NCBI GenBank assembly: GCA_036961325.1
Contig: JBALVF010000002.1
Coordinates: 210,733 to 274,732 of the forward strand
Source: Cycloclasticus sp.
Lineage (GTDB): Bacteria > Pseudomonadota > Gammaproteobacteria > Methylococcales > Cycloclasticaceae
Direction: 5' to 3'
DNA length: 64,000 bases
This document shows positions 6,005 through 28,470 of the stretch, in pieces. The notes under the pieces were generated by a model. That model saw only the letters and a list, made by a program, of their open reading frames with translations, did not search any database and had not been told where the DNA came from. Position numbers and translations under genes: made by a program. Positions within the stretch are counted from its first letter, which is position 1. Each line of letters starts with the position of its first letter.

Positions 6005-7405
6005 TTGGCTAAATTAACGTTTTATGGTGCAACAGAAGGTGTAACCGGTTCTTCCTATATTTTAGAGACGGGTGGTAAAACAATATTATTGGATTGCGGT
6101 CTTTTTCAAGGTGGGCGTGAAGCAGAAAAGTCGAATAAAGATCCGTTTCAATTTGACGTGAGCAAGATCGATGCGGTGGTTTTATCGCACGCACATTTGG
6201 ATCATTCTGGACGTTTGCCTAAATTGGTCGCCGAGGGTTATCAACGGTCTTTATATATGACAGATCCTAGCTGCGAGCTATTAGAAATTATGCTGAAAGA
6301 CGCGGCGTTTCTACAACAGCGCGATACAGAATGGGAAAATAAGCGCAGGCGTCGGCAAGGCAAAGATGAGATTGAAGCCATCTATACGATTGAAGACGTT
6401 GAAGCAACATTGGCACTGTGTGACGGTACTGCTTACGGCGTTCGTCGTGAAATACTGGAAGGCGTTGAGGTCTGTTTTCGAGACGCCGGGCATATCCTGG
6501 GTTCGTCCATCGTCGAATTATTTATCAATGAGAATGGCACAGAAAAAAAACTGGTGTTTTCTGGCGACCTTGGTAATAGCTGTGCGGCCTTATTGCGTGA
6601 CCCAGAAATAGTTGATAAGGCAGATGTGCTCATGCTGGAGTCGACCTATGGCGATCGTAACCACCGCCCGATGGATGAAACCCTGGACGAGTTTGCAAGC
6701 ATCATTACTGAAGCCTCAAAAAATGGCGGTAATATTTTGATCCCGTCTTTTGCCGTCGGTCGAACACAGGAAATTATCTTTCGTCTGGGTGAGCTTTATC
6801 AAAAAGGGTTGTTACGACACCAAGCCGTTTATCTGGATAGCCCAATGGCTATCGCCGTGACCGAGGTCTATCACCGTTACCAAAATTTTTATAATAAAGA
6901 AGATGCATCGACGATGCGGAAGGGCGCAAAAATGAGTTTACATTCCTTTCTACCGATACTGCGATATACCCCCTCAACAGAAGAGTCGATGGCGTTGAAT
7001 AATATAGAAGCAGGCGCAATTATTATTGCGGGCAGTGGAATGTGTACGGGAGGCCGTATACGCCATCATTTCAAGCATAATATATGGAAAAGGAAGGCAC
7101 ACGTAGTGATCGTCGGTTATCAAGCGGTTGGCACGCCTGGACGCTCTTTAGTAGATGGTGCGAAAACGTTTCGTCACGGTGGTGATGACATTGCTGTACA
7201 GGCTACTATTCATACCTTAGGCGGGTTTTCTGCCCACGCCAGCCAGTCGCAACTGGTCGACTGGATCAGTCACTTCAAAACACCACACCCAAGGTTATAT
7301 CTAGTCCATGGCGAAACGGAGACCAAATCAACTTTCCAAAAACACCTGGCAGGGGTTGGCTGGTCAGCCGAAATACCGCATGAAGGTGAAAGTATTACGT
7401 TTTAA
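6005..7405 (+). CDS. MBL-fold beta-CASP RNA-metabolising metallo-hydrolase
   Basis: HAHLDH, AGHILGS, FSGDLG, ESTYGDR, AVGRTQE, GFSAHA, VHGE motifs; GGAG RBS before TTG start. Confidence 0.92.
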   Translation: MAKLTFYGATEGVTGSSYILETGGKTILLDCGLFQGGREAEKSNKDPFQFDVSKIDAVVLSHAHLDHSGRLPKLVAEGYQRSLYMTDPSCELLEIMLKDAAFLQQRDTEWENKRRRRQGKDEIEAIYTIEDVEATLALCDGTAYGVRREILEGVEVCFRDAGHILGSSIVELFINENGTEKKLVFSGDLGNSCAALLRDPEIVDKADVLMLESTYGDRNHRPMDETLDEFASIITEASKNGGNILIPSFAVGRTQEIIFRLGELYQKGLLRHQAVYLDSPMAIAVTEVYHRYQNFYNKEDASTMRKGAKMSLHSFLPILRYTPSTEESMALNNIEAGAIIIAGSGMCTGGRIRHHFKHNIWKRKAHVVIVGYQAVGTPGRSLVDGAKTFRHGGDDIAVQATIHTLGGFSAHASQSQLVDWISHFKTPHPRLYLVHGETETKSTFQKHLAGVGWSAEIPHEGESITF

Positions 7406-7465
7406 ATATAAAGCTCTATGGCTTTTACTTTAGACTGGTTTAGAAGGGTGGGGGAGTAGTTCCTT
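6900..7465 (+). repeat. Direct repeat copy 1 (MBL 3' third plus 60 nt downstream)
   Basis: Aligns gap-free to 23575..24140 at an offset of 16675 bp; about 34 mismatches in 566 nt by hand count. Confidence 0.95.
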
Positions 7466-7482
7466 CTAATAACTTGTTAGGC
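7464..7482 (+). other. attI-like integron recombination site (copy 1, upstream part deleted)
   Basis: TTCTAAT-AACTT-GTTAGGC fits L box / 5-nt spacer / R box. GTTAGGC is the exact complement of the next attC R'' (GCCTAAC). Confidence 0.7.
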
Positions 7483-7505: not shown

Positions 7506-8384
7506 ATGTTCATAGTTAGAAATATTCTGGTGATATTAATCATTATGTTTTCAGGTAGTAATATTAATTTGTATGCTCAGGAAATAATTGATAGTGGTGA
7601 TGAAAAAATCAACAAACCATTATATAAGCCTTTTATAGAAAGATACGTTCTCGATGAGCTAAAACAATTACGTCAGGATCAATCAAATCTACGAGTAGAA
7701 GTTACCGAGAAAGTTGCAAATGCAAAGTTAGATTCGTCTGATAGAGTTATTAGATATACCGCTGATACAACAAATATCATTTTTTATATAATAACTGCGG
7801 CGGCTTCTATCATAGTTTTTCTAGGATGGAACTCATTGCGAGATATAAAAGACAAAATAGAATTTATTACGACTGAAAAATTGTCAGTTCTTACTCAGGA
7901 ATACGAAAATAGGTTAGATGAATTAGAGAATAAGCTGAAGAATCGTTCAGAACAAATAATAGCGACACAAGAGGAAGTGTCAAATTCAAACACAATACAT
8001 TCTTTGTGGATGCGAGCAGGACTAGAAAAAAGCGATCAAGAGAAGCTCAATATATATGATCATATATTAGAGATTAATCCTGATGATACGGAGGCACTAA
8101 CGTATAAGGCTGATGTTTTATTGGATTTGGGTGAAATAAAATGGGCTCTGTCATTATCAAACCAAGCGATAGAAAATGATAGTAATTATGCTTTAGCCTA
8201 TTGGCAGAGAGCTTGTGCTAAAGCGATGCTAGAGCAAGAAAGCGAAGCCTTAGAAGACATAAAAATGGCTATTAAACTTACTGATACCCTAAAAGATGAA
8301 ATAGCCGATGAAATTTATTTTGAGAGACTGAAATCTAATCATGAGTTTCTTGCTTTAATGGAAGAAATGGATTCTACGACTTAA
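7506..8384 (+). CDS. Membrane-anchored TPR-repeat protein (cassette)
   Basis: N-terminal hydrophobic segment, second TM, coiled coil, then TPR-like repeats (ALTYKADVLLDLGE, ALAYWQRACAKA); AT-rich. Confidence 0.75.
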   Translation: MFIVRNILVILIIMFSGSNINLYAQEIIDSGDEKINKPLYKPFIERYVLDELKQLRQDQSNLRVEVTEKVANAKLDSSDRVIRYTADTTNIIFYIITAAASIIVFLGWNSLRDIKDKIEFITTEKLSVLTQEYENRLDELENKLKNRSEQIIATQEEVSNSNTIHSLWMRAGLEKSDQEKLNIYDHILEINPDDTEALTYKADVLLDLGEIKWALSLSNQAIENDSNYALAYWQRACAKAMLEQESEALEDIKMAIKLTDTLKDEIADEIYFERLKSNHEFLALMEEMDSTT

Positions 8385-23574: not shown

Positions 23575-24080
23575 AAGACGCTTCGACGATGAAGAAGGGC
23601 GCAAAAATGAGCTTGCATTCCTTTTTACCGATACTGCGATATACCCCCTCAACAGAAGAGTCGATGGCGTTGAATAATATAGAAGCAGGCGCAATTATTA
23701 TTGCGGGCAATGGCATGTGCACAGGTGGCCGTATACGGCATCATTTCAAGAACAATATATGGAAAAGGAAGGCACACGTAGTGATCGTCGGCTATCAAGC
23801 GGTTGGCACGCCTGGGCGATCTTTGGTGGATGGTGCAAAAACGTTTCATCACGGTGGTGATGATATTGCTGTTCAGGCGACTATTCATACCTTAGGCGGG
23901 TTTTCTGCCCACGCCAGCCAATCGCAACTGGTCGACTGGATAAGTCACTTCAAAACACCACACCCCAGGTTATATCTCGTCCACGGTGAAACGGAGACCA
24001 AATCAACTTTCCAAAAACACCTGGCAGGTGTTGGCTGGTCAGCCGAAATACCGCATGAAGGTGAAAGTATTACGTTTTAA
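23575..24080 (+). pseudogene. 5'-truncated second copy of the MBL beta-CASP gene
   Basis: Last 163 aa of the 6005..7405 protein with 4 substitutions (R>K, S>N in AGSGM, H>N, R>H); lacks the HxHxDH catalytic domain. Confidence 0.9.
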
Positions 24081-24140
24081 ATATAAAGCTCTATGGCTTT
24101 TACTTTAGACTGGTTAAGAAAGGTGGGGGAGTAGTTCCTT
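23575..24140 (+). repeat. Direct repeat copy 2
   Basis: Partner of 6900..7465. Confidence 0.95.
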
Positions 24141-24240
24141 GTTTGGTCTTTATTATAAGATGACAGGGTATTATAGTTCGGACAAGTGCCCGCTTTTCTT
24201 TCGGTGTATATGTAAGGGAATTACAGGGACTTTTTGTTCC

Positions 24241-24259
24241 TACTAATAACTTGTTATAA
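24241..24259 (+). other. attI-like integron recombination site (copy 2)
   Basis: TACTAAT-AACTT-GTTATAA; very close to the class 2 attI2 core as I recall it (TACTAATAAAATGTT). GTTATAA is the exact complement of the first cassette's R'' TTATAAC. Confidence 0.78.
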
Positions 24260-24262
24260 ATC

Positions 24263-24736
24263 ATGAAAAAGTTTACTTTGAGTTTGAAAGAGCAGAAATA
24301 TAATTACGGTGCATATGCATGGGTTATTTTTGACAAGGAATCTAATTTAGCCGTTAAGGTATTTAAAAAAAGGAATAGTACTGAACACGCTAGGAATGTT
24401 TTTAAATCAGAAGTAAAGGCATATGAAATAGCAATGCGCCAAGATGAAATAAGGTCATTGGTACCTTTGTTTCACGGTGAAGTTCATATAGACAAGCTTG
24501 AGAATGCAACAGAAACCTTTCATAGAGATATGGCATATGCGATGTCAATAGAACAAGATATGTTTGTAAAAATAGGAGTTATTGATAGCTTTGAAAGGAC
24601 AAGAATTACAGAACTCTTTAGAAAATTTGGAATCAATTATACCAAAGATGCCTCTGTTCTACTTAATGATGAAAACGAAGTAGTGAAAATAATTGATTTT
24701 GCAACAGAGGAATTTGAATTGTGGCATCAAGAATAA
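24263..24736 (+). CDS. Minimal protein-kinase-like protein (cassette)
   Basis: Ordered kinase-like motifs in 157 aa: YGAYAWV (Gly loop), AVKVF, SEVKAY (helix-C Glu), GINYTKDASV (catalytic-loop-like), KIIDFA (DFG-like). Confidence 0.55.
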   Translation: MKKFTLSLKEQKYNYGAYAWVIFDKESNLAVKVFKKRNSTEHARNVFKSEVKAYEIAMRQDEIRSLVPLFHGEVHIDKLENATETFHRDMAYAMSIEQDMFVKIGVIDSFERTRITELFRKFGINYTKDASVLLNDENEVVKIIDFATEEFELWHQE

Positions 24737-24740
24737 TGAC

Positions 24741-24804
24741 TTATAACAATTCGCTCAAGCAGGGTCGCATAAAAGACATGCGCCCCTTAGCTTAACCGTT
24801 AGAA
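24741..24804 (+). other. attC site
   Basis: R'' TTATAAC; GCT(C)AAG/CTTAGC and GGG(T)CGCAT/ATGCGCCC give two extrahelical bases; R' GTTAGAA; 64 bp. Confidence 0.92.
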
Positions 24805-24827: not shown

Positions 24828-26645
24828 ATGTTACTAAAATCAATAAAAGCAAAGAATATTCTTCCCATTCTGCGTTTTGATGTCGAAAACTTGTCAGATG
24901 TCGTAGTCCTTGCTGGCCGGAATGGTGTCGGTAAAACCAGACTATTGCAGGCACTAATTAATGGGTTCCAGAATCCGGTAGGGCAGAAAAATATTCAATA
25001 TATAATTGAAGCCACTAATGATGAAGAAAGATCGAAATGGGGTAAAAGTATATTAGATACTGGTATACCTCAAGATGCGCAGCTGCTCCAATCTACTCTC
25101 CATGAAAATAGGTTTAGAAGAAATTGGCGCGGAAGTGTAATAAATATTGAAAGTGACAGATCAATACAGAAAATAAACCCATATGCATTCACGTTCGACG
25201 CTGTCGACCCAGATAAGGAGCAAATTGGCTGGAATTTTATGCTTGGCGGAATGAGGAGTAGGCATCAAGATACCCTTCATTCTATTTTCAGAAAAGTTCA
25301 TGCACATAGAAACAAAATCTCGACCTTGGCAGAGAAGTTAATCCGTGAAGGAAAGTCTTCTATGGAGCTCAACTTCCCTGATCCATTGGAAAAGTTTAAG
25401 CATGCTTTCAGGCGGTTGCTGGCTCCAAAAGAGCTTCTTGATGCGGATTTACAATCGCAACAATTAAAATATTCTATTGGTGAGCAGGAGTTATTGTTAA
25501 ACACACTTAGCTCAGGAGAAAGAGAGGTAGTCAATATAGTTTTTGATTTTATTCTCAGAAACCCAAGCGATTGCATAGTATTTTTTGATGAGCCAGAGAT
25601 TCACCTGCACCCTGAATTAAGTTACAAACTTATTCAAACATTGACAAGTCTTGGTGATAACAACCAGTTTATATTTTGTACTCACTCACCTGACATAATA
25701 ACTGCTTCACTCGAACATTCGGTTATATTTGTTGCCCCGCCGCAGGATGCTAATACTAATCAAGCAATTACAGTATCCGAGGATGATGAAACAAATCGAG
25801 CACTTAAACTTCTAGGTCAATCTGTAGGGGTAATTGCTTTAGGCAAAAAAATCGTTCTGATAGAAGGTGAGCACGCAAGTCTAGATAAACAAACATATGG
25901 CGCTATTTTGAAAGATAACTTCCCAGAGTTAGTTTTAGTTCCTAGCGGCGGAAAAGGGCTTATTAAATCATTTTCTCTTCTTCTAAAAGAAGTGCTAGAA
26001 AAGTCTATTTGGGGAGTAGAATTTTTTATGTTGTGTGACAGGGATGTCATTCCTTTGTCCAAAACTGAAGCGGAGCTCGGAAATGGTAGATTTCAAACCA
26101 TACGAAAATATCATCTCGAGAACTACTTTTTAGATGCGGACGTTATTTCAAAGGTATTTCAAAATATAGAACCGGAAGGATCTTGGCTTCGTTCATCAGA
26201 ATCTATAAACGATAAGTTGAAAGAAATTGCTAAAGAAATGGTCTCATATTCTGTGGCCTTGTATGCAACTGCCTATTTTCGCGAACAAGTAGGCAATATC
26301 GACTTAATGCCAAAAGATTGCCATAAAAAAACGAAAGAAGAGCTAGTTGCTCTGATATTAGCAAAGTCAGAGTTAGAACTGCAGCGAGTGGGACATAGTA
26401 TGACGCCAGATGTCATATCGAATTATGTAAATGATACTGCACAAAAATTGGAAGAAAGTGTGGGCAATGGTGATGGCTGGAAGGATCTGATTCCTGGGAA
26501 GAGAATATTAAACGTATTTGCAAGCAAAGCTAATATTTCTGTTGGAAGATTGAAAAGAGCATATATTGTTGAGGCGGCAAAAGTTGAAAACAATCCTTTT
26601 CAAGATATTATAGACATATTCTCTGATTTCAACTCAATGGAGTGA
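24828..26645 (+). CDS. ABC-type ATPase fused to TOPRIM/DUF4435-like domain (OLD-family/fused PARIS-like; cassette)
   Basis: Walker A GRNGVGKT, signature LSSGEREV, Walker B FFDEPEIHLHP, H-loop THSP; C-terminal IEGE...CDRD...YHLENY...PGK. Confidence 0.8.
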   Translation: MLLKSIKAKNILPILRFDVENLSDVVVLAGRNGVGKTRLLQALINGFQNPVGQKNIQYIIEATNDEERSKWGKSILDTGIPQDAQLLQSTLHENRFRRNWRGSVINIESDRSIQKINPYAFTFDAVDPDKEQIGWNFMLGGMRSRHQDTLHSIFRKVHAHRNKISTLAEKLIREGKSSMELNFPDPLEKFKHAFRRLLAPKELLDADLQSQQLKYSIGEQELLLNTLSSGEREVVNIVFDFILRNPSDCIVFFDEPEIHLHPELSYKLIQTLTSLGDNNQFIFCTHSPDIITASLEHSVIFVAPPQDANTNQAITVSEDDETNRALKLLGQSVGVIALGKKIVLIEGEHASLDKQTYGAILKDNFPELVLVPSGGKGLIKSFSLLLKEVLEKSIWGVEFFMLCDRDVIPLSKTEAELGNGRFQTIRKYHLENYFLDADVISKVFQNIEPEGSWLRSSESINDKLKEIAKEMVSYSVALYATAYFREQVGNIDLMPKDCHKKTKEELVALILAKSELELQRVGHSMTPDVISNYVNDTAQKLEESVGNGDGWKDLIPGKRILNVFASKANISVGRLKRAYIVEAAKVENNPFQDIIDIFSDFNSME

Positions 26646-26652
26646 AAATGAG

Positions 26653-26739
26653 TTCTAACAATTACTTGCACACGGACAAAATAAAGCTACGTTGCTTCGC
26701 TCCTCCGCTTTATTTTGCCAGTGAAGCAAGACGTTATAC
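26653..26739 (+). other. attC site
   Basis: R'' TTCTAAC; CTT(G)CAC/GTGAAG; CAAAATAAAGC/GCTTTATTTTG stem; R' GTTATAC; 87 bp. Confidence 0.92.
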
Positions 26740-26752
26740 GGAGAAAACATAG

Positions 26753-27610
26753 ATGGAGACAATTTTTCATTACTGTTCATCATCTACATTCACATCGATT
26801 ATCTCTAATAATTCCATTTGGTTATCATCTTTATCTTTATCAAATGACACTATGGAGGGACGTTTCGTTGCACAAACATTCGATAAGCTACTTGCGAAAT
26901 CGGATGTAGATGCTGAAGAAGCTGAAGAAATTCGAAAAGCTCTCCGTATCACAGGAGAGCTTTTCGACGGCCTTGGTTTTTGTCTATCTGAGAAACCAGA
27001 CCTTTTAAGTCAATGGAGAGGTTACGCAGATGATGGACAAGGATTCTCCATTGGCTTTAATAAAGAATACCTTGATGAACTTTCAAATATAAAAGATAAA
27101 AATGTACCTAGCTTTAAGCTTAAAAAAGTATTTTATGAGCCAGTCGAGCATGAAGCGGAACTTAAACCCATATTTGATGAAATAATGAAACTCGTAGAAA
27201 GCGGGAAATTAAAAAAGCCAAAATATGGTTTGTTAACTATGCCTAGTGATGATGAATTAAAAACTAAGAATGACGAGTATTTAAAATCAATAAATGATTT
27301 ATGGTCTAAGGCTATTAGAACATTACCTAATATACACATACTTAAAAATAAGGCTTTTTCAGAAGAAGTTGAGTGGAGACTTATATCGTACTTATTAAAA
27401 GAGTCTGGTGACTCAGCTTTATTCAGGTCATCTGGGAACAGACTAGTTCCGTATAGAGAATTTAAATTAAAACCACTATCTTCAAATGCAATTAACGAGG
27501 TATATATTGGGCCAAAAAACATTACGCCTTATTTTGTTGTAGAGAAATTTTTATTATTAAACGGATTTCAAGGTGTAACAATAAATAAATCGGAAGCTAC
27601 ATACCGTTAA
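26753..27610 (+). CDS. DUF2971-domain protein (cassette)
   Basis: IFHYCS...SNDTMEG...FCLSEKPDLLSQWRGYADDGQGFSIGF...KNKAFSEEVEWR. Confidence 0.82.
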   Translation: METIFHYCSSSTFTSIISNNSIWLSSLSLSNDTMEGRFVAQTFDKLLAKSDVDAEEAEEIRKALRITGELFDGLGFCLSEKPDLLSQWRGYADDGQGFSIGFNKEYLDELSNIKDKNVPSFKLKKVFYEPVEHEAELKPIFDEIMKLVESGKLKKPKYGLLTMPSDDELKTKNDEYLKSINDLWSKAIRTLPNIHILKNKAFSEEVEWRLISYLLKESGDSALFRSSGNRLVPYREFKLKPLSSNAINEVYIGPKNITPYFVVEKFLLLNGFQGVTINKSEATYR

Positions 27611-27627
27611 CCTAATGGCATATAAGC

Positions 27628-27687
27628 GTATAACAAGTCAATTAGTGCGACCGCAAAAAGCGCGTCGCCTTATTTCAAACGTTAAGT
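27628..27687 (+). other. attC site
   Basis: R'' GTATAAC, GCGAC/GTCGC stem, R' GTTAAGT; 60 bp. Confidence 0.88.
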
Positions 27688-27702: not shown

Positions 27703-28389
27703 GTGCAGCATTCAAAAAATAAATTTTCTAGGGTTAGCGGCATTGCGAGCACTTACATTCATCTGAAAGACATGCCGCGCGGCCTATCTTTAGAGGAAGC
27801 ACATGAGTACCTTGAGAGAATCGCAAGGAAGTGGGCAAAACTACAATACAACCGTGAATTTGACGTTAATGTTCTAGTAGAAGAAGGATCATTAATCGGG
27901 CGAATTGTCCTAAGTGGGGTCACAATATATGGATTAGTAGCTGGTTATGGCTCATTTCGTAGTGGCATTGACCACATTGTTGAGGACGGCCACGCTTTTT
28001 CAAGTCATGTAATCGATCAGTTCGAAAATGACTATCACATAACTGACGATGCAATTATTCGCGCTGAGCGTAGGTTAGGTGTACCAGGTAAAATTCAACG
28101 CTTTTTCGTTCGCCTCGATGGATTAAATTCTGATGATCTCAGCCGAAATGAAAGAGAAGTTGAGATAGAGAAGCTCCAACAAGAATTTATCAAAATCATT
28201 GAGCTTCTACCTGACGATCGAGATCGAGCTATTTTCCAGGAAGCCGCCAACTCGGAACCGCACGAAACCAATGAACTGATTGATAGACAACCTCCGAACG
28301 TTCCATTTGAATGGCCCTTTGATCCCTTCCCAATCCCGGAAGGCGGGAATGTGCCGAGAATTGCCGGGCCTAGAAATGAAGATACTTAA
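27703..28389 (+). CDS. Hypothetical protein (cassette)
   Basis: 228-aa ORF filling the cassette, with its stop codon inside R''. No domain recognised; Pro-rich tail. Confidence 0.7.
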   Translation: MQHSKNKFSRVSGIASTYIHLKDMPRGLSLEEAHEYLERIARKWAKLQYNREFDVNVLVEEGSLIGRIVLSGVTIYGLVAGYGSFRSGIDHIVEDGHAFSSHVIDQFENDYHITDDAIIRAERRLGVPGKIQRFFVRLDGLNSDDLSRNEREVEIEKLQQEFIKIIELLPDDRDRAIFQEAANSEPHETNELIDRQPPNVPFEWPFDPFPIPEGGNVPRIAGPRNEDT

Positions 28390-28470
28390 CAAGTTGCTGT
28401 TGTCGCCATGCTGTGCATGGCTGGGACAGCCTACACTGTGTTGCGGCAGCCCCAAAGCAATGCGTTAGGT
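28384..28470 (+). other. attC site
   Basis: R'' ACTTAAC; GCT(G)TTG/CAAAGC; R' GTTAGGT; 87 bp. Confidence 0.88.

Follow-up and report, generated by a model that had tools for sequence, protein, structure and literature searches.

A minimal kinase-like protein family lacking most of the C-lobe, encoded in an integron cassette of Cycloclasticus sp. and in mobile and defence-associated loci

OspG/NleH and HopBF1 (PDB 4bvu, 4q5h, 6pwg, 6pwd) are single-domain kinases of about 170-200 aa in which a canonical N-lobe is joined to a strongly reduced C-lobe. They are secreted effectors acting in eukaryotic cells, and activation of OspG needs a bound partner, E2~Ub. HopBF1 engages HSP90 (PMC9950578). 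In the structural comparison of the kinase superfamily by Scheeff & Bourne (2005, PMC1261164) helix F, which in all structures surveyed stabilises the catalytic loop, marks the point where the 'universal core' stops, and the catalytic-loop Asn is treated as almost untouchable: N171, carried on a 3-10 helix, is kept by all families but ChaK and PIPKIIβ, where the region forms "an approximately linear chain structure", and in PIPKIIβ nothing obvious makes up for the absent Asn. Here we describe a gene at positions 24263..24736 (+ strand) of a 64,000-nucleotide stretch of Cycloclasticus sp. DNA (contig JBALVF010000002.1; the whole stretch is called the window below), whose 157-aa product is identified by its open reading frame (ORF), family conservation and predicted fold as a full-length, minimal protein-kinase-like (PKL) fold protein. 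Its family combines a Hanks-type N-lobe, a PIPK-like straight catalytic segment and a C-terminus that stops short of the universal core. It is an unnamed sub-core group of the kinase superfamily, mobile and defence-associated, and the smallest kinase-type fold with a precedent found.

Family conservation and predicted fold

The ORF begins with ATG, ends in a double stop (TAA TGA) and is read as MKKFTLSLKEQKYNYGAYAWVIFDKESNLAVKVFKK...SEVKAYEIA...GINYTKDASVLLNDENEVVKIIDFATEEFELWHQE. An exhaustive HMMER scan of 1.84 billion representatives returned 237 homologous clusters at E<=1e-3, 119 at E<=1e-10 and 4 at E<=1e-30. This exhaustive search was needed to reach the whole family, as word-indexed searching reaches 3-12 members only, and for the window protein itself a word-indexed protein search gave just two relatives. 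The family has a median length of 165 aa, with 122 of the 150 best matches falling between 150 and 180 aa, so the short length is native and does not reflect truncation. Its product is a complete, single-domain member of an unannotated family (about 165 aa): none of the proteins has been given a functional name, those few with an annotation being called "hypothetical protein", and the named hosts are Teredinibacter haidensis and Providencia rettgeri. A spurious tandem-repeat protein of 3427 aa (P0039, 34 stretches) was dismissed as a member.

Domain databases place neither the window protein nor its relatives in a described family. For the window protein Pfam gives only sub-threshold matches (Imm41, UBP8-Ubl and YrbL, the last scoring 14.5 bits where the cut-off is 31.5), NCBIfam gives only YrbL (NF007671, 12.8 bits against a 227-bit cut-off), and PHROGs gives one weak, non-significant match to phrog_6473, of unknown function (E = 0.034). 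Imm41 and Ubiquitin_UBP8 (22.8 bits, cut-off 27, no passing stretch) were set aside, being below threshold and seen in one member only. Over 127 family members, for which 25 of 40 Pfam families were listed, the recurrent weak matches in the kinase clan are to DUF1679 (five members), YrbL (three, best E = 0.0037), APH (PF01636; one, E = 0.0011) and Pkinase (PF00069; one, E = 0.013, below the gathering threshold, with none for the window protein).

In the conservation alignment of these 127 members, whose mean column identity is 25%, D129 is the sole invariant column (100%), and the only others at 90% or above are G16 and K32 (99% each), E50, D145 and F146 (98% each), A53, G123 and I124. The family consensus runs G-A-Y-G-x-V-F ... 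A-x-K-V-F ... V-F-x-S-E-V-x-A-Y ... P-x-F-x-G ... A-Y-x-M-E in its first part and G-x-F-x-K-x-G ... L-F-x-x-x-G-I-x-[HY]-x-x-D-x-S-V ... G-x-I-x-K-V-I-D-F-A-x-x-E-x-E-x-[WH] in its second. An earlier note on this DNA had claimed that a glycine loop, an AVK lysine, a helix-C Glu, a catalytic Asp and a DFA motif appear in that order, and the window protein indeed carries a G-loop, A30-V-K32, E50, D129 and D145-F146-A147 (all on the + strand). Its G-loop reads Y15-G16-A-Y18-A19-W-V21, of which the segment G16-A-Y18-A19-W-V21 (24308..24325; consensus G-A-Y-G-x-V, with G16 in 126/127 members, Y18 in 109/127 and Gly or Ala at 19) aligns to the G-loops of CDKL3 and PKA. K32 (24356..24358, 126/127) is the β3 'AxK' lysine and aligns to the VAIK Lys of the same two kinases, while E50 (24410..24412, 125/127), in model helix 40-59, aligns to the helix-C Glu of CDKL3. 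The catalytic-loop Asp in D129-A-S131 (24647..24655; D129 in 127/127, S131 in 109/127, or 86%) leads directly into strand β7, which DSSP assigns to 131-134, with no 3-10 helix and no Asn. The DFG-type metal-binding motif is D145-F146-A147 (24695..24703), with D145 and F146 present in 125/127 members each and A147 in 93/127. K103, in the G-x-F-x-K stretch just after the hinge, is 90% conserved. Judged from the alignment, the Lys/Glu/Asp/Asp constellation of kinases appears across the family beyond what chance would give.

AlphaFold2 models the window protein, with the 127-sequence alignment as input, at pLDDT 93.6 and pTM 0.88. Strands 3-7, 13-15, 19-24 and 29-35 are followed in order by helix 40-59, strands 70-80 and 86-95, helix 109-120 and strands 131-134 and 140-144, with no helix past the last of these. 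A second member (P0129), 26% identical to the window protein, is modelled with the same topology (pLDDT 96.0, pTM 0.89), and both models contain the elements of the PKL fold, namely a five-stranded N-lobe sheet, helix C, hinge, helix E, catalytic loop, β7-β8 and DFG. The top 50 Foldseek matches in the PDB were assessed for each model. For the window protein 50/50 are protein kinases (probability up to 0.99, query-normalised TM-score, TMq, 0.44-0.52), among them PR-1G kinase, LIMK1, IRAK4, B-Raf, PDK1 and HopBF1 (6pwg, probability 0.97). For P0129 they are solely kinase-superfamily chains, including the CurKC kinase domain, PRPK (human Bud32), PknB, Wee1, CK1, AceK and OspG. A Foldseek search of viral models likewise returned almost only protein kinases, with Ser/Thr kinases at the top (best E = 3.7e-4). 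Kinase likeness of the fold had been chosen beforehand as the check able to refute this reading; the two divergent models match kinase-superfamily chains only, and we regard a kinase-like fold as highly probable.

The N-lobe is of canonical Hanks type, with the G-loop G-x-Y-G-x-V, the AxK lysine and the helix-C glutamate (K-E pair). Past it come the hinge, one helix equivalent to helix E, the invariant Asp, β7, β8, DFA and about 12 further residues, and the family lacks the catalytic-loop Asn, the Lys at D+2 (where Ser is found), the activation segment, the APE motif and helices F to I. The absence of the catalytic-loop Asn and of the entire C-lobe after DFA, noticed earlier for the window protein, is therefore a property of the family, as an Asn at D129+5 occurs in 3/127 members, N135 of the window protein (D+6) is not conserved, and the DFG-type Asp is followed by 12 residues in the median and by more than 25 in only 2/127. 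Nor is there a helix F to complete the universal core, the model having no helix after strand 140-144 and the tail of the 127 members being this short. The description of the protein as a 'stripped-down' kinase holds for the whole family. In the window protein ten residues after DFA lead to the C-terminus, and this tail, T-E-E150-F-E152-L-W154-H-Q-E (24704..24733, +; E150, E152 and W/H154 semi-conserved, pLDDT 75 for 151-157), lies where an activation segment and helix F would be expected. We infer that K103, S131 and the tail residues E150-x-E152-x-[WH]154 are candidate stand-ins for Lys168, Asn171 and helix F. The family is of interest in that it has neither helix F nor the catalytic-loop Asn, yet keeps the Lys, the Glu and the two Asp at about 25% mean identity.

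Comparison with described kinases

By fold the family is a member of the kinase superfamily, but it stands outside every described family tested. Its nearest counterparts by behaviour and size are OspG/NleH, HopBF1 and PRPK/Bud32, and by catalytic-loop geometry PIPKIIβ. Hanks kinases (PF00069), which make up the majority of the Foldseek matches, share with it G-x-Y-G-x-V, AxK, the helix-C Glu, [HY]-x-x-D and K-[VI]-I-D-F-A, but differ in possessing Asn171, a Lys at D+2, an activation segment, APE and helices F to I, and in separating the two Asp by 17 residues where the family has 14-15. OspG and HopBF1 are among the Foldseek matches nearest in size and give the best target-normalised TM-scores (TMt 0.40-0.45), although identity to the cassette family is 8-10%. 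The cassette family is about 20-40 residues shorter than these effectors, ends about 12 residues past DFG, has no catalytic-loop Asn and, unlike them, is found in integron cassettes, defence islands and prophages of free-living bacteria.

PIPKIIβ resembles the family in that its catalytic Asp is followed by a strand, with no N171-bearing 3-10 helix and little structure beyond the core, but it lacks the K-E ion pair and the Hanks-type G-loop, yet keeps helix F. Comparison of the DSSP assignment and the alignment with the published description (PMC1261164) shows the linear catalytic region of PIPK type without N171 in the family too, the β-strand starting two residues past the invariant Asp (D-x-S-V-x-L, DSSP 131-134). 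PIPK and IPK (PF01504/PF03770) are absent both from the Pfam families listed for the 127 members (25 of 40) and from the Foldseek top 50s. The motifs D-x-S-x-L-L and I-D-F-A are reminiscent of MDYSLL, SSLL and IDF, which PIP and inositol-phosphate kinases carry.

YrbL (PF10707, a PhoP-regulated kinase-like protein) and Bud32/PRPK are small kinase-clan proteins of 185-230 aa. YrbL shares P-x-F-Y-G and D-x-x-G-x-[DI]-S stretches with the family, but keeps K-P-K-N, has about 40 extra C-terminal residues and carries no Asp at the position of D129. A YrbL homolog in another genome (L026:1492-2049, - strand) shows K-L-K-P-K-N in place of the Hanks H-R-D-L-K-P-x-N, so that it keeps the Asn without the catalytic Asp, the mirror image of the cassette family. 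PRPK/Bud32, which ranks with the best structural matches (TMq 0.50-0.53), is a universal KEOPS subunit and retains its C-lobe.

The likeness to RIO/Kdo-type minimal kinases proposed in the earlier note did not hold. In structure the family comes closest to HopBF1, OspG, PRPK/Bud32 and ordinary Hanks kinases; the window protein gives no match to the Pfam models of RIO/Kdo (PF01163, PF06293) at E<=1, and these families are found neither among the 25 of 40 Pfam families listed for the 127 members nor in the Foldseek top 50s. A C-terminal helical substrate-binding subdomain of APH type is impossible, as no residues are left for it. The CapK/CapS kinases (PMC13373217), whose genes lie upstream of immune operons, were rejected as a comparison because CapK is a GHKL-type anti-sigma-factor kinase of a different fold. 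The main text of a 2026 structure-based survey of kinase-like domains does not use the words 'minimal', 'truncated' or 'smallest'.

Homolog neighbourhoods and possible function

About a dozen of the 237 clusters were placed in genomic context, and most of these neighbourhoods are conflict or defence loci. In T. haidensis (L020) the gene lies in a long array of small same-strand genes with ParDE and has attC on both sides. In a marine metagenome-assembled genome (L012/L011) it sits behind G|TTATAA and is followed by ACTTATAACAA and then by a Ppl (PHP-ATPase) defence gene (PDLC02208, 2.7e-25), and a further cassette array (L001) contains a HEPN RiboL-PSP gene. The cassettes of the window, L012 and L020 have identical border cores although their proteins are about 41-45% identical, which indicates that gene and attC have long travelled together. 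In Providencia (L021-23, L032) the gene is the final one of a prophage of 57.7 kb and lies between its tail-fibre region and smpB. Elsewhere it stands past a Gp49/HTH toxin-antitoxin pair (HigBA-like, L015), directly past a type I restriction-modification (R-M) operon with an AAA_13 gene and before a transposase and an integrase (L028), and in an island with a PLD-helicase (DUF3427), NUDIX, three Mrr_cat genes, PDDEXK_5, DUF4145 and an integrase (L029/30). The remaining contexts show it among unknown genes (L014) and on a 950-bp contig too short to inform (L016).

In three further loci the gene is closely associated with other sequence elements. In L024/25 it lies 16 nt 3' of a 380-aa HEPN_RES_NTD1-RES gene and a strong terminator follows it (L025:47-1678, L024:6843-8474), an arrangement suggestive of an operon of two genes; in L024 the kinase-like gene is intact while the RES gene is split into three ORFs. 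A 249-aa protein (P0088, L017-L019) fuses an N-terminal fragment of DUF4747 (31.5 bits, positions 1-87 of 257), a domain of lambda RexA (PMC6426606), to the kinase-like domain. In L002 (5984-6696) a 168-aa homolog (6068-6574) is alone between 50-nt inverted repeats that are 92% complementary and 613 nt apart, in a unit without a transposase that is flanked by a radical-SAM gene and a GIY-YIG gene; this looks like a small mobile unit, bounded by inverted repeats and bearing only the kinase-like gene. No second gene recurs beside the family in the contexts examined, and the family is therefore a stand-alone module. No relative was found by tblastn against plasmid and phage reference collections, or by a search of genome contigs and viral contigs with the five closest sequences.

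The earlier suggestion of a toxin or antiphage effector gains support from these neighbourhoods, which comprise about ten independent homolog contexts, but is not proven by them. Read from the same neighbourhoods, the most likely role is phage defence or mobile-element conflict, and the family is a good candidate for an undescribed single-gene defence or conflict function, given that it occurs in single-gene cassettes, at the end of a prophage and in islands that also hold PARIS-like, Ppl, R-M, Mrr and RES genes. From the near-total conservation of K32, E50, D129 and D145 we infer that the protein would be a phosphotransferase dependent on ATP and Mg and not a dead kinase. Catalytic competence seems slightly favoured. 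ATP/Mg would be bound in the cleft between the N-lobe and the β7-β8-DFA hairpin, and the gamma-phosphate would be transferred via D129. Since the protein has no substrate-docking lobe, and with OspG and HopBF1 as precedents, an external partner, whether target or activator, probably packs on the exposed catalytic face. Were its role defensive, a phage protein or a host factor would serve as trigger or target, and its phosphorylation would abort infection.

An active enzyme with a conflict or defence role, encoded by a stand-alone gene, is the reading we tentatively prefer on the grounds of conservation, predicted structures and neighbourhoods, at somewhat under an even chance. In a more specific version, which we consider doubtful, the half-kinase would be inert alone until a phage or host protein docks and supplies the functions of the C-lobe; the partner or a nearby target would then be phosphorylated and infection stopped, and the protein would be the smallest autonomous catalytic unit of the protein-kinase superfamily, with about 155 residues and an end ahead of helix F, and a single-gene anti-phage system. 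If active, the family would set a new lower size limit for kinases and would offer a compact, easily expressed model of the minimal needs for phosphotransfer.

Several observations weigh against an active, defence-related kinase. The Foldseek E-values, about 1e-3, and TM-scores, about 0.5, are modest. The best match of the family profile to PDB sequences, the N-lobe of CDKL3 in an alignment that pairs G-loop with G-loop, K32 with the VAIK Lys and E50 with the helix-C Glu, is non-significant (E = 0.17), and hhalign of the profile against PKA recovers only the G-loop and AxK at a probability of 0.3, which gives no support. With the second-Mg2+-binding Asn and helix F missing, the protein may be inactive or perform other chemistry. 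Neither the window protein nor the Providencia homolog matches any family (0) of PADLOC-DB 2.0, and, since integron cassettes carry genes of many kinds, the neighbours there are weak evidence of function. In cassette 1, the cassette that holds the gene in the window, a promoter scan upstream of the ORF found no site, a Shine-Dalgarno sequence was likewise not found there, and the ATG comes only 3 nt past the core GTTATAA (24253-24265, as also in Teredinibacter, L020 ~7990-8003), which leaves no room for a Shine-Dalgarno sequence inside the cassette, so that translation signals must come from upstream.

Part of this evidence could be accommodated by a small-molecule or lipid-type kinase, a minimal relative of the APH, choline, PIPK and inositol-phosphate kinases on a resistance or metabolic cassette. 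Integron cassettes classically bear phosphotransferase resistance genes, the family has weak matches to APH, DUF1679/EcKL and YrbL, and a protein-substrate docking lobe is absent. The straight D-x-S-V-x-L without Asn171, followed by I-D-F-A, also fits the catalytic region of PIPKIIβ type (PMC1261164). However, the top structural matches are all protein kinases and neither top 50 holds an APH, PIPK or IPK chain, PIP5K and IPK do not occur among the 25 of 40 Pfam families listed, the helical substrate-binding subdomain of APH and choline kinases is absent, and the neighbours are dominated by defence and toxin-antitoxin genes, not by resistance or metabolic genes, all of which leaves such an enzyme unlikely. 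A pseudokinase-like nucleotide-binding switch or decoy, binding ATP or a phage protein without transfer and serving as a sensor, scaffold or inhibitor, would be in keeping with the loss of the Mg-binding Asn, the catalytic-loop Lys (Ser at D+2), the activation segment and helix F, and with both the partner-like position 16 nt past the RES effector and the fusion to a RexA-type sensor fragment. We nevertheless judge it quite improbable, as the equivalents of K72, D166 and D184, which pseudokinases typically lose, are 98-100% conserved at about 25% overall identity, and such conservation, being hard to explain without catalysis, favours a catalytic protein.

The toxin-antitoxin genes near some homologs bear on a further alternative, in which the protein is a constitutive addiction toxin that stabilises the cassette array and has no anti-phage role. 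Kinase toxins such as HipA exist, and homologs are found in arrays with ParDE and beside HigBA-like pairs. Stabilisation of chromosomal cassette arrays by toxin-antitoxin cassettes is known (PMC13108822), but the contexts examined contain no conserved antitoxin gene, the 545-bp cassette holds one ORF and a lone constitutive toxin would not be maintainable, making this alternative very improbable. A chance ORF, or a decaying fragment of a truncated Hanks kinase, might be suspected of a short, AT-rich gene without a Shine-Dalgarno sequence that adjoins a truncated gene in an integrase-less array. The family data refute this, with 237 homologous clusters of the same length and with conserved catalytic residues, 0/127 aligned members that reach a full kinase C-lobe and two confident, compact models, and we give it practically no weight.

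The cassette array of the window

The gene had been placed in the first cassette position by the earlier note, and this position is confirmed by the core G|TTATAA (24253-24259), which ends an attI-like platform, and by the cassette's own attC at 24741-24804. Cassette borders were read by eye and by alignment. On the sequence, cassette 1 (24254..24798, +, 545 bp) extends from the G|TT crossover of the attI-like core to the G|TT crossover of its own attC, with borders identical to those of L012 and L020. Its attC (24741..24804, no strand assigned; R'' TTATAAC ... R' GTTAGAA) forms a bottom-strand hairpin of -14.7 kcal/mol (z = -5.2, 0/200 shuffles as good). The AT-richness remarked on before is also evident, the GC content of the gene being 0.32-0.34 against about 0.45 in the sequence flanking the four-cassette block.

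The four cassettes of the array are intact, and the genes of the three that follow are all on the + strand. Cassette 2 carries a fused ABC-ATPase/TOPRIM gene (24828..26645), AriAB-like (PARIS-type; PDLC02981 AriAB, 1.5e-60), and ends in attC2 (26653-26739). The gene of cassette 3 (26753..27610; attC3 27628-27687) encodes a DUF2971 protein, the PADLOC candidate PDC-S31, and that of cassette 4 (27703..28389; attC4 28384-28470) a 228-aa protein of unknown function with no Pfam, NCBIfam or PADLOC match and only a weak match to phrog_31894 (1.4e-5, function unknown). In all four the R'' box of the attC exactly complements the first bases of its own cassette: TTATAAC at 24741 with the start TTATAA at 24254 in cassette 1 (hairpin z = -5.2, as above), TTCTAAC at 26653 with TTAGAA at 24799 in cassette 2 (z = -4.4), GTATAAC at 27628 with TTATAC at 26734 in cassette 3 (z = -2.5) and ACTTAAC at 28384 with TTAAGT at 27682 in cassette 4 (z = -1.5). 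An operon or functional pairing of the kinase-like gene with the downstream ABC-ATPase (AriAB-like here, Ppl in L012) was rejected, an attC lying between the two and most homolog contexts having no such neighbour.

The kinase-like gene was not found in 40 relatives (21 of the same genus) or in 400 genomes across the class, and it is foreign to the Cycloclasticus-like host lineage. In context only, the array resembles the clusters of attC sites lacking integron-integrases (CALIN) and the defence-rich chromosomal arrays of a recent report (bioRxiv 10.1101/2024.07.02.601686) in its attC-bounded single-gene cassettes, the lack of an adjacent intI and its defence neighbours. That report on defence cassettes uses the word 'kinase' 0 times and mentions no kinase-fold cassette. 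The present array offers a concrete case for the recent view of chromosomal cassette arrays as repositories of streamlined defence genes.

The attI-like platform (24081..24259, +) lies 3' of a truncated beta-CASP gene, a 163-aa C-terminal Beta-Casp/RMMBL fragment (23589..24080) standing directly ahead of it. It ends in CTAATAACTTGTTATAA, reading CTAATAACTTG|TTATAA at cassette 1, and duplicates 7250-7480 up to GTAGTTCC with the same core; this near-identical copy sits behind an intact gene (6005..7405). In L012 a perfect 15-bp inverted repeat (ACTATACAGAATC ... GATTCTGTATAGT, 1063-1118) is found immediately upstream of the G|TTATAA core, where the attI-like platform would stand, and behind an MBL-fold (metallo-beta-lactamase fold) gene. 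A common MBL-fold gene upstream in the window and in L012 was discarded as a shared feature, the two genes not being homologous.

The sole IntI-class gene of the 2.48-Mb genome is about 625 kb from the kinase-like gene on the same contig, with none adjacent, and the array is therefore of CALIN type. This integrase (G000:C3:859972-860919, locus L031) scores 442.7 bits, above the cut-off, and the probable attI crossover beside it, GTTAGGC, matches the first bases past the core of the first platform copy (window ~7470).

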